Source: Protoeuglena noctilucae (lineage: Eukaryota). Taken from it: a stretch of 20,000 bases of DNA. Each line of letters begins with the position of its first letter. The first letter of the stretch is position 1. The stretch is from positions 1,603,983 to 1,623,982 of the forward strand of contig OY253671.1 in assembly GCA_958009085.1 (NCBI GenBank), given 5' to 3'. The translations under genes and the position numbers were made by a program. Under the pieces are notes generated by a model. It was not told the origin of the DNA. It made no database searches and saw only the letters and a list, made by a program, of their open reading frames with translations. Shown here one piece after another: positions 2,897 to 20,000 of this stretch.

Positions 2897-4754
<1,858 letters not shown>

Positions 4755-8300: not shown

Positions 8301-11300
8301 CCCGCCCCGCCATGGCTGCCCCCCGCCGGCCCCGGCCACCGCCTGCGCCCCTCGCATCTGGCAATGCTGTCCGGGTCTCAATCGCGCACGCTGTCGGTCG
8401 CCTCTCTGCGCACCGGCCGTGCGGCGCCTGTGGCGGTGAACGTCAACGCGGCGTGGACGCCCGGGGTGGCGGCGCTGGGGCAGAGAGACACGTGAGTGGG
8501 GGCGGTAGAGAGGGAGGAGTGATGAGGGTAGATACGTGAGTGGGGGTGGCAGAGGGGGGGGGTTGTGATCAGGGGGGATGCGTGTGATGGTGCGGCATAG
8601 CTGTGTCGCCATTCTGCTCTGTGTTTGCCACTCATGTCGCCCTCATGTTCACCACCCCCCCCATGTACCCACTCCCTCTCATGTTCACCACTCCCCCTCA
8701 TGTCACCACTCACATGCCACCCTCATATCCCTCCTCACTCACTCACTCACCCTCTCCCCTCCCCCCCAGTCGCTCCTCGTGGCCCCGCCCCGACGCCCGC
8801 GCCCCCTCGGCCGCCCACGCATCGGTGGGGTCGCTGGGATCGATGGGATCGGTCAGTTCTCTCAAACTGGACCTGCACACCGTCAGGGAGGCAGTCGCGT
8901 ACCCACACGGGCCCGGTGAGGGGGGGTGGATGGATGCGATTGGCAGAGACATCACTGATGATCAAGCGCACAGCTGATGACCGTGATGCTGCTGTGGCCA
9001 TGCGCTGCAGTGCGGTGGTGTGCTGTCTGCTGCAGTTGTCATACATTGCGCTGCTGTCGTGCATTGCATTGCATCCATCCACAAAATGTCACCCCCCCCC
9101 CTCCCTCCCCCAGGTCTCCCCCGCCCCCCCCACCCCCTGTCCGGCACCGCGCGTGAGATGGCGTCCATGTCTGACCTGGGCAGGCTGCTCGACAGGGCAG
9201 CACACGTGCACGGGGTGCCCACGGGGGTCACCTCACCCGCCCAGGCGAGAAAGGGTGGGGGTTCATACTGCTGTCGATCTCATTACGATCAACAGCAGCG
9301 CTTGCTGTCTCCAGTGACACTCACTCACTCACTCCCACACTCCCACACTCACCCGCTCACTCACTCAGTCCCTCATTCACACCTCCCCCCCCTTCACTCC
9401 CCCCCAGTCCCGCCCCTCCCTCGACGCCCTCTTCCCCACTCACACTCACACACACAGACACACTCTCACTCACTCTCACCCATTCACAATCCCGTCTTCT
9501 CCCCCCCAGGCCCGCCCTTCCCTGGACGCCCTCTTCCCCCTCTCCCCCTCCCGCGCCGCATCCACCACCGCACTGCTGCCGCCCTGGTGGGTGGTGGGAG
9601 CCGGGGGACTACACTGCGCCCACCCATCGGCATTGACAGCCGTGGATGCAGACGCACCGATGACCACCATGGCTGCGCCACCCAACACAATGGTTGGTGC
9701 TATGACGAGTGGTTCTGGTGTCACGTCTACCGTTGGTGTCACGTCTACTGCTGGTGTCACGCCTATTGCGATGTCTATGGCAACTGCTGGTGTCATGGCA
9801 TCTCCTGACATGGTGGATGCTGCATCTCCGGGTGACGTGCCTGTGGACCAGGATCACGTGACAGTGGGGCTCGACTGGCAGGGGGGGGCGGTGGTCACGA
9901 TGAGGCGAGTGCGCGAGAGGGGGGGGGCGGTAGCGAAGCATATGATGCGAGTGGCTGTATTGGGCACTCGTTGTACTAACCAATCAACCAACAATCGCCT
10001 GTGTCATCGCGATTGCCAGCATAAGCGTCACTCACGCCACCCTCCTCTCATGCGCATGCCATAGTGTATGTGGCACTCACGCCACCCACCTCCCAACACC
10101 GCCTGTCATGCCATTCCCCCCATCTCCCTCCCCTCCCTCACAGCACCGTCTCCACCGTCCACCGTGCCGCATCTGTCTCTCTTTACCCCCCCCGCGACCC
10201 ACTCCTGGCGCCGTGGGCGTCACCCCACGCGCACGTCACGCCACTCCTCCCATTCATGCTGCGGTGAGTCGTTGTGCTATGGCAAATGCTCGAACTTGCT
10301 TTTATATATAGTGTATCTCTCTTTTTTTGTATTAAACGCACTCTCATCGTCAATCCATGACCCCCCCCTCTTCACCCCTTCACACCCACATCCTGACCCT
10401 CAACCCCCCATATATCATCTCCCCCCCCCCCCCCAGTCAGTTGGTGCGCCAGGGCCGCCTCCCCGAGGCAGAGTCCCTGGCACTGCGCCACGCATCGTCC
10501 ACCGACGTGGCACTCTCGCTGGAGAGACTGCTGGCACTGGCACTGCACGCCTGGCACCCCGCCACCCCCAGGCACCGCATGCAGGGGGCAGGCACGCACA
10601 GCCACGGTGAGGGGGATGTGGGTGTAAGGTTGCATGTGGATACCGTTCATGACAGTACTGGTACTATCAGTACCATCATAGAAACGAGTTGCCATGGTAG
10701 ACGTGTGCAGCGTGTCGAGATGCATGTAGTGCTAAGCATGTATTGACAAGACATAATACACGCAACCCCTTCCACCTCCCACTCCCCCCCAGTGCGCCCC
10801 CTCCCCCTCGTGACCCCCGTGCACTCGGTGGCGAGGCCAGACGACAGCCCACCCCCCTCCCCGCCCTCGCCCCTCCCACCGCGGCCGGGCAGCCCCCCCG
10901 CCTTCTCGCATCTCCCTCCCCGCGACGCCCACGCTGTGACTGCTATGGTAACTGATGACGACGACAGCGGGCGTGAGCGTGGCACCCCCTCCCCCCGCCA
11001 CAGCGCCGACGCCGCCAGGGAGTCACCGGGTGAGGGGAGAGTGCGTGTGGTAATTATACAAGCGTGCATGCTCACATGCTGTCACGCGCACCCCCATGTT
11101 CACCATCACATGCAGTGACGCGCAGTCCGCACCCCCTCTGCTCATGTGTCGTCACTGCCCCCACCTCTGCCCTTCCACTCTCAGCCTCTTCCCCCTTCAC
11201 CCCCGACATCTCCCGGCCCCTCAGCCGCCGCTCCCTCCACCGCCTGGCCATGCCATCCCTGTCCCTCTCCCCCGGCACTCCCAGCGGGGACGACGACAAC

Positions 11301-13249
11301 GAATGGGGCACTGCCAGAGACGCGACAGGGGCGGTGAGGAGATGGGGGGGGCATGTGTGATGGATGCAGCTGCGAGCAAGCCCAATGCATGCATTGGGAC
11401 CTGCAATTTAGGCAACCACACACAAGCACGCAATCGGCAGGCGTATGCGCGCACCGCCTCTGCTCTGCTTTGCTCATAACATGCAATCACACATGCCCCA
11501 GTGTAACCGTGATGTCAATCATACCATCGTCACTCTCACCGCCAATGCTCCCCTCTCCCCAATCAACAGGGCCCCGCCCCCACCTCTCACCTCGAAGACG
11601 TCTTGGCCATCCTCAAGCAGTTCCCGCACTTCCCAGAAGTGGTCATCAGGCGAGAGATGGGGTGATGGAACACGGCATGTATTGCACCCATCTCCACTCA
11701 CTCCCACTCGCACTCAATATCACCTCTCACCCATCGTCCCCCCCTCACCCCCAGCGTGGCGCGCAAGTGCGACCACTCCCTCTGGCCCCCCCTCTTCCGC
11801 CTCGCCGGTCCCCCCTCCTTCCTCGCCGAAGAGGTCCTCGCCAGGGGTAACCTGCGCACAGCAGCGTCCGCACTCGTCGTGGTGGGGGAGGCCGAGGGGG
11901 GGGACGCGGCCGCGTCGCTGGCCAGGCTGGTGACGGAGCAGGCGTTGCACGCGGCAGACTACGATCTGTGCGCGGAGCTGCTGCGGTTTGCGCTTCTGAG
12001 GGGGACGGGAGCAGGGCCGCCCTCGCACCCCCCCTCGCCCACCCTGCGCGCGAGCGGGGGCGGCAGCGCGCCCGCATCCCCCGCACTGCGCCGCAACGGG
12101 CACAGCGGCGATGCGGCGAAGGCGCAGGGAACGCAGCCGCGCGCGTCGCAGGGGTGGTGGCTGCTGTCGTGGCTGATGGGGGGCGATGCGACACGCGGGG
12201 AGGGGGGTGGTGGTGGTGGCAGTAATGGTGCCAATGCAAACGCGGGTGCAGTGTCCAGTCGCCTGTCCCGCAACAGTCTGCCCCGCTCGTCGGGTCTGCT
12301 GGACCCGCATGCGACGTTGGACGCGGTGCTGTCATCCATGGCGGTGCCTGAGCCGCCCCCCCCCGAGGGCACACCTGCCGCGTGGCTGTGGTCGCTGTGC
12401 GGGGAGGTGTGTCAGCACGCAGTGGCATTGCTGGACATGGGCATGCTGTCGCAGCTGGCGGCCATGGGCAGGGCACTGGCACCCGCGGGGGCATCGCTGT
12501 CAACAGTGCTGGGGGCGGGGGGGGCGGCGCGGTGGGCGGCCGCTGAAGGGGCGATGGCGGAGCGGGGCGTGGCGGGCGCACAGGCGTGGGGACTCGAGGC
12601 GTCGCTGCTGGCGGCCGTGGCGGGGCCGGACGAGGGGGAGGGGGAAAGTGAGGGAGCGCTAGTGAGAGTGGCGATGAACGTGGTATCACGACTGCCATGT
12701 CACGCGCCGTGTGATGTCTCGTTGCTCACCCATGCTATAACCACCTCCCCTGCAGCGCCCCTCCCCCCCCGCCCGCTCTCCACCAAGACCCGTGCTGCCA
12801 TGGCCGTGCACGCGCTGTCCCTGTGCCGCGACGAGTTCACCGCGGACCCCGGGGACGCGGCCCGCTCCTCTATTGATGCTCTGTGCGATGCTTTGGGGTG
12901 CCATGGGGCGTGGGCGTGGGTGGCTGCGCTGGGACTCGTGGCGGCGTCCAAGGAAGCCATCGCTGAGGTGAGGCACAGGCATTGCATACATTGCATGGCA
13001 TGGCACGGGACAGTGATGCATGGGGCAGCAAGCGGATGTGATGAGGGGCGGGGTTGGGTGACATGAGGCGCACTGCTGCTGACGGCTGCTCTTCATGCAT
13101 GCATGCCGTTCTCTCTCCCGCAGGTAGCCGCCAAGGACCATGCTTTGTGGGAGCACTTCTCCCGCCAGGTGCGCACGGACGTGCAGCTGGCCGCCTTCTG
13201 GGGGACAGTTGATGCGGCGTGGGAGGAGGGGCTGGGGAGAAGGGCGTAG
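5316..13249 (+). CDS. RIC1: RIC1 homolog (Rab6/Ypt6 GEF complex subunit; WD40-like N-terminus plus RIC1 domain), about 1612 aa
   Basis: Exons 5316-5403, 5603-6416, 6532-6819, 7071-7260, 7416-7557, 7719-7909, 8025-8491, 8770-8915, 9114-9244, 9510-9904, 10144-10263, 10437-10606, 10793-11029, 11185-11333, 11570-11649, 11755-12647, 12756-12967, 13124-13249 (4839 nt, in phase). RIC1-like motifs recognised from memory: MLIPYGFP start, YLAHWPLRHVA..DAVAVAG, RWHLCGD, MLRQLVRQG..LSLERLL, FPHFPEVVISVARKCDHSLWPPLFRLAG..LRTAA. Some internal boundaries are uncertain (7871 vs 7910 donor; 11116 vs 11185 acceptor). Confidence 0.88.
9318..9481 (+). repeat. Intronic (CACT)n/(CA)n low-complexity tract
   Basis: CACTCACTCACTCACTCCCACAC…CACTCACACTCACACACACAGACACACTCTCACTCACTCTC within intron 9245-9509. 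Confidence 0.8.
9717..9770 (+). repeat. 18-bp coding minisatellite in RIC1 exon 10 (GVTST[V/A] units)
   Basis: TGGTGTCACGTCTACCGT / TGGTGTCACGTCTACTGC / TGGTGTCACGCCTATTGC, with a further partial unit near 9784-9797. Confidence 0.85.
11650..11754 (+). other. GC-AG intron in RIC1
   Basis: CAG|GCGAGA donor, phase 2, restores FPEVVIS-VARK. Confidence 0.85.
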
Positions 13250-13641: not shown

Positions 13642-16600
13642 ATGAGCCAGGCTCCTGCCGCGCCGGCGCGGCCCCTGGCGCAGGGGGCCACGCAGATGGA
13701 GAAGGAGAAGAGCATTCCAGCCACTCCGACGCCCACGGGATCCTCCGTCCCCGCCGATGCGTCCGCGGCCCCTCTTCCCACGATGTGGTCCGAGGTGGCC
13801 CCCGAGGAGGTCCAGCAGGCGAGCGGGGATAGCCGGGCAGTGCAAATGCATTGGGTATTGAGCAACAGCGCTGCGGAAGTTGAGAGCGGACGCTCTGCGC
13901 GATCTGGGAGTCCCGTTTGTTCTGCGCTGCGTTTGTATTCGACTCCCCGCGCGCATCCCCCCTCGCGGACTGGCGCTGCATGGTCAATCTCGGTCTGCTT
14001 ACGGATGATGTGCATCGGGGCAGAGTGAGGTGGCCATTTGCGCTCGCAGGGTGCGCTGATGGTGGCCATGGCGCTGACCCCGGGCCGAGGCATCCAGATG
14101 GCAGGGCGTGCGGCAGCGGGGCCCGGCAAGGGCGCGGACTCGGACGCGAGCATCGTGCCGGTGGCGGTGCTGGCGGCCGCGGAGACCTCTGACCCCCTGG
14201 GCATGGGTCGGCTGGACCCCGCCACCCTGCGGCTGGTGGAGCCCCGGGCGGCGAGGCCCGCGGCGCTGCGGGCGGGGGCCCCTGCGCGCGCGGCGGCTGC
14301 GGACGCGGCGGCGGTGCTGCCCACGAGCAAGTCCTTCGACCCCGACGCGTACCTGGGCACGGTGCATGGGGCGACCCCTCGAGTGCGACTGGAGGCGGGG
14401 ATGGCGACGCTGTCAGAGGAGCTGTCAGAGCGGACGGCGCAGCTGCGTGCGCTGGTGCGTGACAACTTCGCCCGGTTCATGTCCTGCAAGGGCGCCATCG
14501 ACGGCATCTACGGCCGCCTGAGGGTCAAGGACTCTGGGGGCGTGGCATCCACGCGCGCACTGCTAGACACGGTGAGGGGGGGAAGGGGAGCAGTGCTGGA
14601 TGTGCGGGTAGACATGATGAGTGCGGGATGCTGTGCGACTGTGTCTGGGGAGAGGCGAGCGGGATCGGGGCGCACGAGTAATGGTGTGACCGGACGGGTC
14701 GCTCCCGTGTGCAATCACGGCAGTCTGGGGCAGGCGTGGTCGCCATGCACACCCCTTCTTTCTCCCGTCTCATCCGCAGATATCCCAGGCCGAGCAGTCT
14801 GCCCGCAAGGCCCTCGACCCACTCCTGGAGCGGCAGGAGCGCACCGAGCGCCTGCGGGCGTCCATGGCGGCCCTGCGCAAGCACTCGGCGGCCGTGTTCC
14901 TGCCGTCGAGGATGCTCGAGAGGGCGGGCAGGGGGGACTTCGCGGGTGCTCTGGAGGACTTTCGCGGGTGCAGGCACCTGCTGGCGCCGCCCCAGCCGGG
15001 CGCCACGGGGGGGGCGGTGTGGGCGGGGCTGGTGCGGGAGGCGAGGGGCGCGCTGCGGCAGGTCGGGCACATGGCGCAGGCGCACCTCTGCGCCAGCGCG
15101 GGGGACGCGGGGGAGGTGGCGCGCGCCCTGGTGGCACTGCGCGGCATCGCCCAGGAGCTGGGGCCCGAGGCGGTGCGGCCACCCAAGTGAGGGACACGAG
15201 AGTTGGTGGAGTGCTTGACTTAGATTGTGTTAATATCTGTCTACGAGTATGTTCAATAGTGTCGCACCTTGTCGCCCTTTTGTCGCAGGCGGCAGGCGGA
15301 GGGGGAGGGTGGGGGTGCGCCTCCCCTGGTGCCGCTGGACCCGGAGCCGGGGCGGCTGCTGGTGCGCACGATATGCGCGAGGGGGGTGCGGGAGGTGCAG
15401 AAGACGCACGGAAAGCTGCAGAGGTGTGAGGGGCGCAATGGAGGGGGGGTGGGGTACCACATCACATGTCATATGCAGTTGGGATGCCGCGCATGGCAAC
15501 CACCCTGCTACCCTGACCCCCCCGCGCACACACCCGCAGGGCTTTGAAGCGACTGGAGGGCGAGGGCGCCCCCCGCCGCGCCCGCACCACGGCGCTGGTC
15601 CGCGCGGCCGTGCGCGTCTCCCAGGCGACCACCGACTGCGTGCGGCTGGCGTGGCGGCTGGCCAATACCCCCGCGGTGCTCGAGGCGGCCGCCGCGTTCC
15701 CCGTCTTCGGGCCGAGGGGGGCCGCCCGCCACGCCGCCAAGCGCAGCATCGGCTCCGATGCCGACCTGGCGGGGGCGGGGGCTGGAGCGGGGGATGCAGG
15801 GCCCTCGCGGCTGGGCCCCGGGGGCCGCGGCGGTCGCGGCGCCGTGGCCGGCACCCCCGACCGCGACCGCCGCGCCATGCACCGGATGTCATCGGTGGCT
15901 GCCCAGTCCCTTAGCCGCGCCAGGTCCAGCGTGGCGTCGTTGCACGCCGACCCCCTGGGCACCGAGGCGGGCACCGCGCACCTCATCGACGAGTTCTCAA
16001 GAGTCGCGGGGGACATCCTCGAGGTGAGGATGCGATGGGCAGGGGGGTGCAGATGGGCAGCATGTGACTGTGCTTGTCCTTGCGATGCTGAGGAGTGCAG
16101 ATGGGTAGCTTGATGAGCTATCCATGAAATGCTGCGGAACGCATGCGCAGTGTCCGACTCTTCGCCAAATCTGTGACATTCTGTGACATTCTGTGACATT
16201 CGCAGCGGGTGGTGCGTCTCTCCACCGAGGCCACCGCCGAGGCAGGGGGCGACGACGGCACGGTGGGTGACATGGCACCCGTGGCGTCACTGGTGCGCGC
16301 GCTGGGGGCAGCCAGGAGGCAGCTGCTGGCCACGGGGGCGGCAGGCGGGACGGACACGAGCAGGCGAGACACAACGCGGGGCTCACACGGCTGTATGATG
16401 CAGCTAGTACTACTTTCGACAGTCAACCACACCGCCACGCACGTCACTGAGGAAACACATTAGTGCCCAACCAACCCCCCTTCCCCCTCCCCGCAGCAGC
16501 ACCTCCCCCCCCTCGCCCGTGGCCCCCGTCTCCGCCGAGGCCGTGGATGCCGTGGATGCCCTGCTGCGGAGACTGGTCGAGGCGTCGGCGTCCGCGGCCG

Positions 16601-18094
16601 CCCGTCGCCTATCCACCGCCGTGGATGCCGCGCTGGCAGAGCACCCCGGGGCGTGCGCGGCTGCGCTGGCAGAGTCGGTGGACGGCCCCTCCGCCCGCGC
16701 CCTCCTCGCCCTCCTGCAGCCGGCGCCCGGCCACGAGGCCGCCTCCGCCCTGGTCGTGCAGCTGGAGGGGGCGGCCACCCCGGACGGCCCCGGCGCGCCC
16801 GACCCGGACCTGGAGCGCACCGCCCTGGTCGCGTGGCTGAGGGGGGCACTGCGCGCCGCCGTGTGCTCGGTGGAGAGCGCCGCGCGCGACGCCGACGCCG
16901 CCGGCACCGGTCTGCTCTTCGACGCGACCGCCCTCGTCGACGCCGCCTGGGGGGCCGTCGCCCGCGCCGCCGCATTCCTGGAGCTCTGCTGCTCCAAGGG
17001 GGCGGCGCCGCCGGGGCCGGATGGGGAGCGTGTGGCCGCCCCTGCACCCGGCGCACCCCCGGTCGGATCCCCCGAGTGGGCACTCGCCTCCCTCAGGTGC
17101 GAAGACGAGCAACGATATCACAGATCGCAACGCCACGCGTCGCGAATTCCCTTTATAAGACACCACCCCCTCGCGTGCCTGTGCCTATGCAGGTCCGTGT
17201 CGGGTCTGGAGGCTCTCTGCGCGTGGCTGGACTCTCGCCTGGCGCCCCTGCTCATGCACAGCCCGGGCCGCGCCGCCCCCGTGCCCCCTGCCCCCGCCAC
17301 GTGCCTGTCCGCCCTCTCCGCCGCCCGCGCCGCCGTCATGGCGCACTTCTCCTCCTCGGCCGCCTCGCGCGTGCGGGCGCTGGTGCGTGAGTGGGTGGCC
17401 AGCGTGGCGCGCGTCCCCGTGCTCAGCGTCGACCTGCTGGACGACCCGGACGGCGACGAGGCCGCGGGGGTGCGCGCATGGGGGGTGCCGGCTGGGGCCA
17501 GGGGCGAGTGCGCGCGCGTGGTCGACTACCTCTGCCGCGTGGCGGGGGACCTGTCCCGGAGCGCCCCGGACCAGCGCCTGGCGGTGCTGGGGGCGCTCGT
17601 GCGGGGGGCGCTGGGCGAGGCGGGGCGCGCGGCCGAGGCGCTGCTGCAGGGAACCCTGGAGGCCCCGGCCCCGGGGGGCGGCCTCGCGCCCCTGTCGCTG
17701 GCCTGGCGCGTGCAGCGCCGCGTGAGCGTGTGCGCCTACTGCCAGCTGCGCCTGGAGCTGGAGGTCCTCGACGAGGCCACCGCCGCATTCCGCACCCCGG
17801 ACACCGAGGCGGCCCTCTTCGCGGCACTCGAGGCGCTCGCGGAGGCGGCCGTCGTCACGGGTGAGGGGCGGGGAGAGGGGGGTCTGCCGGGCGGCGCTGG
17901 CGACTGTTGTGTACTTACCCATTTCCCCCATGTGACGCGCAGAAGAGGACCAAGCGCTGCTGGGGCTGGACGCCGAGGCGGGCGTGGCGGCGGGCCCATT
18001 GGCGGAGGACGCGTACGGGGCCGTGGCCGCGCCCCTGCTGCCCGCGGCGCTCGAAAGGATGGCCCTGGCCACGCGGTGCCTGGACGCGGGGTGA
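13642..18094 (+). CDS. SEC5: Exocyst complex component SEC5/EXOC2, about 1100 aa
   Basis: Exons 13642-13818, 14050-14571, 14780-15186, 15289-15423, 15540-16023, 16206-16363, 16497-17096, 17193-17860, 17943-18094 (3303 nt, in phase). Plant-Sec5-like motifs DPLGMGRLD, FDPDAYLGTVH, LRALVRDNFARFMSCKGAID, ALDPLLERQERTERLR, FLPSRM, AYCQLRLELE. The start codon is less certain. Confidence 0.88.
16171..16200 (+). repeat. Perfect tandem repeat (CTGTGACATT)x3 at an intron 3' end
   Basis: Three identical 10-mers immediately before the CGCAG acceptor at 16201-16205. Confidence 0.95.
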
Positions 18095-18419
18095 CGCCAG
18101 TGATGATGGCGGCAGAGGATAGTGCTATTGAATGCGTGTTGTCAAGCGTGCATGCGGGAGGCACAGCGGCGTGCGTTGGTTGCTGGGTGCGTGCGACTTG
18201 GCTGCGGCTGGCGTGCTGTCGGAAGCGTTGAAGAGGGTGGCCGATGTGACGGGGAGTAACATTTGATGCTGCGTATGAATCGATTCAGTTGCAAATGCTC
18301 GCAGCGCGCGGAGCGGGGCGTGTGACAGTGTGCATATTCGAGTCCCTGGATTGGGACCCTGCGCCATCGGAAGTCAACGACTTGGCAAGCCCATCGCCGG
18401 GGGCGCGTCTGCCGTACAG

Positions 18420-18551
18420 GCCGCGCTGGTCGTGCAGGGCCCAGGCGCAGGGACCGTCGTGGCCTACGACGACGCGCGGGGGTCATTCACGGTGATAGTC
18501 ACGGCTGATGCGCCGGACGAGGTGGTCTATGTGTCGGTGGCCTCTGACTGA
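18420..18551 (+). pseudogene. Possible coding-exon remnant interrupted by an element tail
   Basis: After a TACAG acceptor-like site, GC3-rich codons give AALVVQGPGAGTVVAYDDARGSFTVIVTADAPDEVVYVSVASD. The stop TGA is supplied by the CTGACTGA tail of the adjacent element. Confidence 0.3.
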
Positions 18552-18716
18552 CTCTCTTCACAAGGCTCACAGCTAAGATCGCGGATCTACCTCTTGCCAC
18601 TATCGCCCGGGGCCCTCGAGCAGTGGCTTCAGCCGCTTTGGCAGTGCCAGGGCCAGCAACTACCAACGCCAGGGAAGCTTGCATCAGCGGTGTAGAGTAC
18701 ATCACCACCGCCTAGC
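18544..18716 (-). other. Predicted structured RNA element, copy 1
   Basis: Several stems covary with copy 2. G-U wobbles work only on the minus strand. Confidence 0.65.
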
Positions 18717-18885
18717 CACAAAGAAAAAAGGCGTGAGACATGAAGCCGTCACGCCGCTCAAGGGGGCACCCCCTTGGGAATGGAGCGCCCCGGGGGGCGG
18801 AGAGAGACAGCCCAGGAGGGCGGCAACACTCAGAACGAGCGGAGCAACACCCACCGGGGAGGCCCGGCGGGGGAGGAAGGCGCCC
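18544..18885 (-). mobile_element. Putative 5'-truncated non-LTR retroelement fragment 1 (3' UTR only, (AGTC)n tail)
   Basis: 18544-18716 is a diverged homolog of 18886-19073 (identical block AGCCGCTTTGGCAG at 18631 and 18989; shared CTACCAAC, GTGTAG.GTACATC, GCCTAGC). It starts with CTGACTGACT on +. The retroelement identity is inferred from architecture. Confidence 0.55.
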
Positions 18886-19073
18886 CTGACTGACTGACTC
18901 GCTTCAAAGGGCACACAGCTTAGGCCTCAGGCCTATTGCTCGCCAGTTCTAGCCTATAACTAGGGGTCCGGTCCCTGGACCTGGCTTAAGCCGCTTTGGC
19001 AGCACAAGGGCCTATGCTACCAACACCCAAGAAGTTCGCGTCGGCTGTGTAGTGTACATCGGCACAGCCTAGC
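18886..19073 (-). other. Predicted structured RNA element, copy 2
   Basis: Same stems as copy 1 plus an extra hairpin CUAGUU-AUA-GGCUAG. Confidence 0.65.
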
Positions 19074-19392
19074 TTAGAGGTGGAACCCGAGGAAAAAACC
19101 ACCCGAGGGTGAGGAGGGCAAGCCCCCCTGTGCCGGCGAAGGCGCATGCAAGAAGCAAGCGCAAGACCCCCAGATACGAGGGCGGGTGCCCGCTAGGCGG
19201 GCTCAAAGGGCTGCAGCAAGGCAGCGGGGGCAGCTGCAAGACAGCGGGTAGGCGGCGCGGCGGCTGCCACTCCCCCCGACTCGCAGGGCCGGGCTGGGGT
19301 GGCGGGCTCAGTGGCCCACCGCTTGAGAGCCCTGGTGCATGGGGAGGTGCCCCTGGGGCGCCGCCCTCTGCACCCTGGGCCCGGCCGCCCCA

Positions 19393-19746
19393 TCATGGCG
19401 GCGCTCGGGCACGAAGGCCGATGGGGAAGGGGAGTGGGCGCCCCACGCCCGGCGCGGGCACACGGTCCATGCTGAACCACTGGCCCGCCTGCTGGATCTC
19501 TTGGACTACAGCCTGACGCTGGGAGAAGAAGGCGCCCCGCACCGTCGTGGCGATGGCGCGGCGCACCCGAGTGAGCACCTCGCCCGTGCCCGGGGGCCGG
19601 GCGTGGGGCAGCCGGCGCAGGGTGGTGTGGTACAGGACCATCGTGCCCCATGCCGCCATGGCCCAGGCGGAGGCGACGATGAGCCACAGGGTCGGCGGCC
19701 AGTTGGGCGGCGTCTGCAGGCCGAGCACGTGGCCGGCCGTGAGCTG
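19393..19746 (-). pseudogene. Truncated ORF (117 aa), possibly the C-terminus of an L1/Tx1-type ORF2
   Basis: QLTAGHVLGLQTPPNWPPTLWLIVASAWAMAAWGTMVLYHTTLRR… has GC3-rich codons and no in-frame ATG at its start. It loosely resembles the hydrophobic 'lt..hvllg..P...lW.lv...a.W' segment after the zinc knuckle of L1-clade ORF2. No RT motifs are present. Confidence 0.4.
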
Positions 19747-19755
19747 TTAAGATGG

Positions 19756-19834
19756 TTAGGGTAGGGTAAGGTAAGGGTAAGGGTTAGGGTAAGGCATTTT
19801 AGGGGTAGGTTTAGGTTTTTAGGGTTAGGTTAGG
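19756..19834 (+). repeat. Degenerate proximal telomeric repeats
   Basis: TTAGGG, TAGGG, TAAGG, TAAGGG, TTTTAGGGG, TTTAGG, TTTTTAGGG and TTAGG variants. Confidence 0.9.
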
Positions 19835-20000
19835 TTAGGGTTAGGGTTAGGGTTAGGGTTAGGGTTAGGGTAGGGTTAGGGTTAGGGTTAGGGTTAGGGT
19901 TAGGGTTAGGGTTAGGGTTAGGGTTAGGGTTAGGGTTAGGGTTAGGGTTAGGGTTAGGGTTAGGGTTAGGGTTAGGGTTAGGGTAGGGTTAGGGTTAGGG
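19835..20000 (+). repeat. Telomere (TTAGGG)n
   Basis: Near-perfect TTAGGG array running to the end of the sequence, G-strand 5'->3' outward, with two TAGGG units near 19871 and 19984. Confidence 0.97.

Follow-up and report, generated by a model that had tools for sequence, protein, structure and literature searches.

Retroelement copies at chromosome ends have been described in several settings. Zepp, an L1-like long interspersed nuclear element (LINE) of the trebouxiophyte algae Chlorella and Coccomyxa, carries poly(A) tails, and studies by Higashiyama in 1997 and Yamamoto in 2003 reportedly found, to go by their titles, that it accumulates both in telomeric regions and where newly formed minichromosomes terminate. 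In mammals, Morrish is said to have described in 2007 endonuclease-independent L1 retrotransposition at dysfunctional telomeres, with an endonuclease-dead L1 in repair-deficient cultured cells. Zepp clusters of Coccomyxa lie mostly inside chromosomes, one per chromosome, according to an excerpt of PMC3446292. An excerpt of PMC10088271 lists SART/TRAS, MoTeR, GilM/GilT and Tx1-1_ACar as telomere-repeat-specific LINEs, and a section of PMC8557442 gives the endonuclease-minus Penelope-like elements (PLEs) Athena and Coprina reverse-complement telomeric repeats and an adjacent hammerhead at the attaching end. Here, we describe the end of contig OY253671.1 of Protoeuglena noctilucae (assembly GCA_958009085.1), where two 5′-truncated units with (AGTC)n tails lie between the last gene and the telomere; the structure is of a known kind, and the LINE-like family behind it appears to be undescribed. 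The window is the whole stretch of 20,000 nucleotides that we analyzed (positions 1,603,983 to 1,623,982 of the forward strand); coordinates below count from its first letter, and it ends in a real chromosome end.

Two truncated units beneath the telomere

A first-pass annotation had read this region as a head-to-tail, telomere-capped array of retroelement-like fragments. The head-to-tail order and the telomeric cap are borne out, but "array" is too large a word for two units. Unit 1 (18544-18885) and unit 2 (18886-19746) are both in sense on the minus strand with their tails inward. Runs of (CTGA)n or (TCAG)n with n of at least 2 occur at only two places in the window, 18544-18553 and 18886-18899. 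The former is the unit 1 tail, (AGTC)2.5 in sense (CTGACTGACT on the plus strand), which is joined to single-copy DNA at junction A; the latter is the unit 2 tail, (AGTC)3.5 in sense (CTGACTGACTGACT on the plus strand), which is joined to the 5′ end of unit 1 at junction B. Both DNA copies thus end in (AGTC)n, not in poly(A). The stretches behind the two tails match (18544-18716 and 18890-19073; 68.4% identity over 187 columns, E 2.4e-14) and form a common 3′ module of ~185 nt, and we therefore read the units, as the annotation did, as two diverged copies of minus-strand sense; the copies come from two related subfamilies. Besides this pair, comparison of the window with itself gave no match with E <0.02.

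From its tail outward, unit 1 consists of the conserved structured 3′ module (18554-18725, minus strand), recognized by identity to unit 2, a consensus fold and contig depth, and of a subfamily-specific upstream part (18726-18885) that runs up to the 5′ truncation point. The tail of unit 2 abuts unit 1 directly, without filler, and because 18880-18886 repeats 18785-18791, unit 1 extends to the junction. Unit 2 has its own conserved structured 3′ module (18900-19080, minus strand, from the alignment and the consensus fold), followed by the rest of a 3′ untranslated region (19081-19392) that measures ~495 nt from stop codon to tail, and by an open reading frame (ORF) remnant of 117 codons plus stop (19393-19746). 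Telomere hexamers are absent between the units and proximal to them, and the lone TTAGGG before 19750 sits at 4592. A common 3′ end with variable 5′ cuts (18885, 19746 and, in copies described below, 19726) is typical of retrotransposons that lack long terminal repeats (non-LTR elements), and so is the short simple-repeat 3′ tail.

The annotated cut of unit 2 within its ORF, with the telomere behind it, can be placed exactly: the match to a database protein, P0001, sets the cut at 19746, and repeats begin at 19747. The tract, with its G-rich strand on the plus strand and the chromosome end to the right, contains 28 TTAGGG among 41 parsed units. It opens with degenerate telomere-proximal repeats (19747-19834; TTAAGATGG, TAGGG, TAAGG, TAAGGG, TTTAGG and others), and these proximal ~90 nt also include the variant TTTTTAGGG and one unit with an internal CATTTT. 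From ~19835, the repeats are regular and form the (TTAGGG)n tract (19835-20000).

Longer copies, a second cap and RNA

The stretch or part of it is present in 15 of 24 listed runs from six studies, comprising marine metagenomes, metatranscriptomes and runs of organism A, and we compared contigs from four of these runs: X1 (marine metagenome DNA), X4 and X6 (organism A DNA) and X9 (RNA). Summed contig depth, which is not equivalent to copy number, is flat over the flank 18026-18529 (8.8, 97.3 and 312.1 in X1, X4 and X6, respectively), reaches 155, 1760 and 1929 at 18593-18655, and is 33, 521 and 560 at 19475-19537, corresponding to ~2-18 times the single-copy flank over the element bins and 6-18 times over the unit 1 3′ module. 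At the borders of the units the contigs are interrupted. The family is evidently present in many copies, among which the 3′ module is the part found most often.

Both units are truncated versions of longer copies. In the unit 1 subfamily, a 990-nt contig (X1 and X4) and a 7,791-nt contig (X6) are identical to 18604-18879 and then continue, so that unit 1 is 5′-truncated, and the proposed joining of the unit 2 tail to a truncated 5′ end is upheld. These longer copies carry a diverged tandem duplication of 18785-18879, ~95 nt in length (joint from 18879 to 18785 in X1, X4 and X6), with 10 mismatches and two gaps between the repeats. Similarly, in four of four runs a contig continues behind 19746, its by-eye translation giving the residues that lie upstream in the database protein P0005; other copies are therefore longer, and unit 2 is 5′-truncated. 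Contigs also cover the unit 2 3′ untranslated region and ORF remnant (18927-19745 in X1 and 19167-19726 in X4). Other copies have other 3′ flanks, with loose ends before 18544 (X4) and before 18560 (X1, X4, X6 and X9). At junction A, contigs of X1 and X4 that start in the single-copy flank reach 18573, which is 30 nt into unit 1 and one letter short of the 31 letters set as the rule for bridging. In all four runs, one contig matches only the ORF pieces 19436-19470 and 19561-19597, skipping 90 nt (30 codons) and with unrelated sequence on both sides; it may represent a relative of the element that has undergone a deletion or diverged strongly.

A second cap point lies 20 nt inside that of the window: an X6 contig ending at 19726 enters telomere-type repeats there, and an X4 contig likewise ends at 19726. 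The X6 contig, which is from short reads, shows variant units at its own telomere junction similar to those in the window, so that the variant units are probably real and not long-read errors. Database ORFs show corresponding starts. The 108-aa form P0014 begins with the first start codon that a copy cut at 19726 would retain, and at the position of codon 10 it has M in place of the L of the window. On 10 contigs, 111-aa ORFs (P0007 on seven; P0011, P0012 and P0015 on one each) begin at the GTG that gene calling would be expected to choose on the cut copy of the window. These starts would fit copies cut at 19726 and 19746, respectively.

The family is transcribed, with both subfamilies represented in RNA libraries, although DNA contamination is possible. 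A 358-nt contig of X9 comprises 18545-18881 without mismatch plus 21 T; these lie before 18545 and in sense are poly(A) that immediately follows ...AGTCAGTCA. In such GC-rich DNA, a genomic homopolymer of 21 nt seems unlikely. The unit 2 subfamily is represented by a 722-nt contig that spans 19145-19746 and then enters a longer copy. X9 lacks RNA cover at 18089-18214, 18467-18529 and 18908-19096. With a common 3′ module and longer, multicopy, transcribed copies, the description of a 5′-truncated, retroelement-like family with an (AGTC)n tail holds.

A structured 3′ module and a recurrent target flank

When the two modules are folded jointly in minus-strand sense, the consensus contains 49 pairs. 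Eight of these are compensatory, with both sides changed, and no pair is broken in either sequence. Column shuffles reached the consensus-fold values in one of 500 cases, and in a control with partners slid by one to three columns there were no compensatory pairs and 32-43% paired cells, a contrast that is inflated by there being two sequences and a structure derived from the same two. The plus strand folds worse (-35.8 versus -51.55 kcal/mol), with 41 pairs of which six are compensatory. The 3′ module thus has the appearance of a structured RNA in minus-strand sense. A conserved 21-mer of the module recurs in nine metagenome stretches, all of them unrelated (GC 47-51%, no further similarity); on six contigs (L001, L003, L004, L005, L007 and L008; ~49% GC), it falls by chance in apparently one A/G-rich coding stretch. 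We also set aside as chance a 23-mer match on one contig of a bacterial metagenome-assembled genome.

Four 3′ junctions can be read: A (18543/18544), B (18885/18886), the loose end of X4 at 18544 and the loose end of X9 at 18560. In all four, GCC or GCC[CT] stands directly before the complement of the tail. GCC/GCC(Y) makes up 5.35% of window positions, both strands counted, and four of four would arise by chance with a probability of 8e-6, or ~1e-3 after a generous factor for post hoc choice. Because the polyadenylated RNA contig stops before these letters, GCC(Y) belongs to the target and not to the element. The flanks suggest the nick preference of an endonuclease, and hence endonuclease-dependent target-primed reverse transcription, which would include the insertion of unit 2 into unit 1 sequence. 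They also hint at such a preference rather than at attachment to randomly eroded ends.

The ORF remnant and its protein

The minus-strand frame 19396-19746 encodes 117 aa that are 98% identical to residues 128-244, the C-terminal 117, of P0001, a 244-aa database protein from metagenome assemblies. Since the frame matches the C terminus only, unit 2 is cut mid-ORF. It is also 99-100% identical to 122-aa database forms (P0005, 99%; P0008, 100%), and database ORF forms of 244, 122, 111, 108 and 88 aa occur. A CX2C...HX4C knuckle (CRFCSP...HALWTCP) is present in P0001, N-terminal of the cut in unit 2. In a protein-language search with P0001 residues 1-135, 25 of the 30 named Atlas matches fell in a family set that holds zf-RVT (PF13966; score 0.94, 171 shared features), and whole P0001 matched a zf-RVT cluster at 0.95. 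zf-RVT is the zinc-binding region behind the reverse transcriptase (RT) of many non-LTR elements. We take a relationship of the element protein to zf-RVT families as a lead, which is not proof of membership.

Among the 244-aa forms P0001-P0004, the first ~140 residues are identical, and two types differ at ~25 of the last 100. An identical N-terminal part with a divergent C-terminal part suggests recombination or template switching between subfamilies.

Sequence searches of the ORF proteins against Pfam, NCBIfam and the PDB gave nothing significant, the best match being CT_C_D at E 0.21, below the cut-off. Against 1.84 billion representatives, the 117-aa ORF had two matches, both near-identical proteins, and word-index searches with P0001 gave no match of greater length and, at similar lengths, returned just P0001. 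No full-length or RT-bearing copy was found among the longer database proteins searched, and protein-guided scans of genome and viral contig collections confirmed no relative. Keyword searching of the literature, with incomplete coverage, found no report, for a marine protist, of a telomere-adjacent LINE with an (AGTC)n tail. The earlier suggestion that the family is possibly undescribed agrees with these results: in the protein collections searched, the relatives are near-identical and none is named, so that this multicopy family seems to be unnamed.

The gene neighborhood

GC content is 63-76% per kb across the window. An excerpt of PMC9481584 describes a pelagophyte, abundant in ocean samples, with TTAGGG telomeres and 63% GC, features that would fit those seen here. 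Pfam matches on the plus strand identify an eIF5A frame (~1287-2392), a porphobilinogen deaminase (HMBS) frame (~2930-4132), a RIC1-like gene (~11666-13066), with a weak WD40 match upstream, and an exocyst Sec5 frame that starts at ~14029 and probably extends to 18095. The extent of the last gene is read from the frames, as is its stop codon at ~18093-18095. A single-copy spacer (18096-18543), with flat contig depth and no repeat match in the window, separates this stop from the tail of unit 1. Housekeeping genes therefore reach to within ~450 bp of unit 1, and the two element stumps are the entire subtelomere, with no other subtelomeric repeat zone. Elsewhere in the window, short tandem repeats lie between coding frames at 8640-8711 (an 18/37-nt repeat), 9318-9479 [(CACT)n/(CACTCA)n] and 16170-16201 (a perfect 10-nt unit, 3.2 copies); they are presumably intronic or spacer sequence belonging to the RIC1-like and Sec5 genes.

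Comparison with described systems

The likeness to Zepp is one of behavior: in Chlorella and Coccomyxa, as here, 5′-truncated LINE copies are stacked or nested beside a telomerase-made telomere in a unicellular alga. The telomere repeat beside Zepp differs from the TTAGGG found here. Zepp copies are also poly(A)-tailed, unlike the DNA copies in the window, which end in (AGTC)n; poly(A) was seen on the RNA contig only. A generalist LINE that uses a chromosome-end 3′ hydroxyl (3′-OH) gives the same polarity as that seen here, and to this extent L1 at dysfunctional telomeres is comparable, although the GCC(Y) flanks would argue for nicking.

The Drosophila elements HeT-A, TART and TAHRE, as portrayed in an excerpt of PMC10088271, stand head-to-tail, their 3′ tails pointing to the centromere and their 5′ ends, truncated to varying extents, to the chromosome end. 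The same head-to-tail arrangement is found at the extreme end here, with tails toward the centromere, though in two units only. Drosophila has no telomerase, and its elements themselves make up the telomere. Unit 2, in contrast, is capped by at least 250 nt of TTAGGG-type repeats, and the elements here do not replace telomerase repeats. The junction flanks, which suggest nicked targets, are a further difference from HeT-A/TART. Elements of the SART/TRAS and MoTeR type resemble the present family in being non-LTR elements at telomeres of organisms with telomerase repeats. They insert within the telomeric array, as far as an excerpt of PMC10088271 describes them, but the targets here are single-copy DNA (junction A) and unit 1 sequence (junction B), and neither unit lies within the telomeric repeats.

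The first-pass annotation had also invoked Athena, and this comparison fails. Athena and Coprina share an association with chromosome ends, and the PLEs Naiad and Chlamys share tandem arrangements and an association with microsatellites, according to a section of PMC8557442. CCCTAA is absent from the whole window, however, and TTAGGG is absent within 18000-19746; an Rfam scan of 18300-20000 (E ≤10) gave seven weak matches (E 0.06-10), all far below gathering scores and none a hammerhead. With neither a telomere-complementary stretch nor a hammerhead, we reject an Athena/Coprina identity. The ORF end resembles, as a lead, zf-RVT and not a GIY-YIG endonuclease, and no PLE-type RT was seen in the ORF proteins.

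How the chromosome end may have formed

On balance, we lean toward target-primed reverse transcription as the source of LINE-like insertions, with telomerase healing either the outer end of the cDNA or a break that came later. The telomere association would then be opportunistic, of the Zepp type, and not that of a dedicated telomere-building system. Membership among the non-LTR elements is argued from behavior and from the zf-RVT lead. Reverse transcription would start at the AGTC tail, because the RNA has poly(A) behind the tail and the DNA copies do not; LINEs that recognize a 3′ stem-loop likewise begin upstream of the poly(A). In each unit, the cDNA would have extended the 3′-OH of the G-rich strand, which would fix the observed polarity, and the orientation that had drawn attention to this locus is indeed the one expected if a G-strand 3′-OH primed cDNA synthesis. 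That 3′-OH was most likely a nick after GCC(Y) by the element's own putative endonuclease, in subtelomeric DNA for unit 1 and in resident unit-1-family sequence for unit 2. Either the outer end of the cDNA or a break that arose later within unit 2 may then have lost its distal partner and never been rejoined, and telomerase would have capped the exposed end with TTAGGG repeats, a case of chromosome healing. We infer the RT/endonuclease mechanism, the order of events and the healing by telomerase from the structure of the locus. That telomeres form de novo at breaks is well established according to an excerpt of PMC4700185.

Several observations weigh against insertion at nicks followed by healing. 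No RT or endonuclease domain was found in the ORF proteins in the Pfam, NCBIfam and PDB searches, the window copies lack the RT region, and the AlphaFold single-sequence model of P0001 is unusable (mean predicted local distance difference test score, 37.7). The GCC(Y) motif comes from four junctions and was noticed post hoc, making it a hint and not a logo. No target-site duplication is readable at the units, because telomere occupies their distal side. End attachment demands exactly the polarity that both units show, and a later random break gives it only half the time; telomere junctions 20 nt apart (19746 and 19726) are odd for random breaks. In a genome of few chromosomes, copy numbers such as those seen would be compatible with an exclusively terminal location.

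Much of this would be accounted for by a dedicated or endonuclease-independent end attachment, in which the free G-strand 3′ end at an uncapped or eroded chromosome end serves as primer, the route taken by HeT-A/TART and, at dysfunctional telomeres, by L1. Unit 1 would have been added and its 5′ end eroded, then unit 2 added and the whole capped by telomerase, with the family acting as a back-up or partner of telomerase. Although we think this unlikely, the polarity of the two units and the pair of cap points follow from it more naturally than from the insertion reading. The observed polarity, in which the tails face the centromere and the G-strand carries the units in antisense, would be obligatory, and end attachment is equally in keeping with a unit 2 tail set on a truncated unit 1 without filler or readable target-site duplication, with telomere repeats directly on truncated 5′ ends at 19746 and 19726, with element fragments as the whole subtelomere beside essential genes and with modest copy numbers. 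However, randomly eroded ends are not expected to finish in GCC(Y) in four of four flanks, and at least two further, non-telomeric 3′ flanks occur in other copies, although these copies could still be at ends since 3′ flanks are always proximal. The telomere-complementary stretch and hammerhead motif of end-attaching PLEs are missing, and telomerase is plainly active, so that a retroelement telomere is not needed. Decidedly doubtful, in our estimate, is a dedicated end retroelement working alongside telomerase, with most or all copies at ends and tails inward. In that version, uncapped ends would first be lengthened by reverse transcription of the element RNA, recognized through its 3′ module and AGTC tail, and the cDNA end would then be handed to telomerase, the cap points 20 nt apart marking a preferred stop or hand-over site.

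The units may also have arrived in other ways. AGTC repeats flank unit 1 on both sides, and its identity to another copy over 276 nt suggests youth; unit 2 could thus have been resident at 18544, the 340-nt unit 1 inserted later, in a fixed orientation, into its (AGTC)n tail in the manner of microsatellite-targeting LINEs, and an unrelated terminal break healed by telomerase. A bias toward insertion into microsatellites is known for other retroelements (PMC8557442, in excerpt). This order is improbable to our mind: junction B has the same GCC(Y) flank as the others, which would fit unit 2 nicking unit 1 sequence, a separate break inside unit 2 in the right polarity is needed, and there are two tails only, with no independent case of tail targeting seen. 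We give equally little credence to a single reverse transcription that began at 18544 on a unit-1-type RNA, switched end to end to a unit-2-type RNA and was capped by telomerase. Non-LTR reverse transcriptases are known to jump between templates end to end, RNA libraries contain both subfamilies, and the 5′ end of unit 1 joins a complete unit 2 tail seamlessly. That end, however, is an internal position of longer copies, so that a broken or truncated RNA is required; no data single this route out, and the GCC(Y) at the end of unit 1 would be a coincidence. Last, telomere reads or a distant repeat copy could have been misjoined to a gene-rich contig. A multicopy element invites misjoins, and junctions B (18886) and C (19746/19747) are bridged by none among the contigs listed, which also counts against our preferred reading. 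Even so, an artifact appears very improbable: contigs lead from the single-copy flank into the unit 1 tail in the marine metagenome and in two organism A runs, the short-read contig of X6 independently shows telomere repeats on the ORF at 19726, 111-aa database ORFs on 10 contigs start as expected for the cut copy of the window, and depth is non-zero across both junction bins.

Implications

We know of no dedicated end system of this kind described in this lineage. If the dedicated-end reading were true, it would extend end maintenance by a retroelement plus telomerase beyond insects, Giardia and fungi, and would provide a telomerase-positive counterpart of the Drosophila system. The 3′ module and tetranucleotide tail would then be a defined RNA handle for the choice of template and primer by a reverse transcriptase. 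If the reading that we prefer is true, that of LINE-like insertions healed by telomerase, the locus is a clean natural case of a chromosome end in which two retroelement stumps are all that lies between essential genes and the telomere, and ocean metagenomes show the same junction to single-copy DNA. Such a case would help in the annotation of an unnamed LINE-like family and in studying how compact protist genomes tolerate and repair terminal damage.

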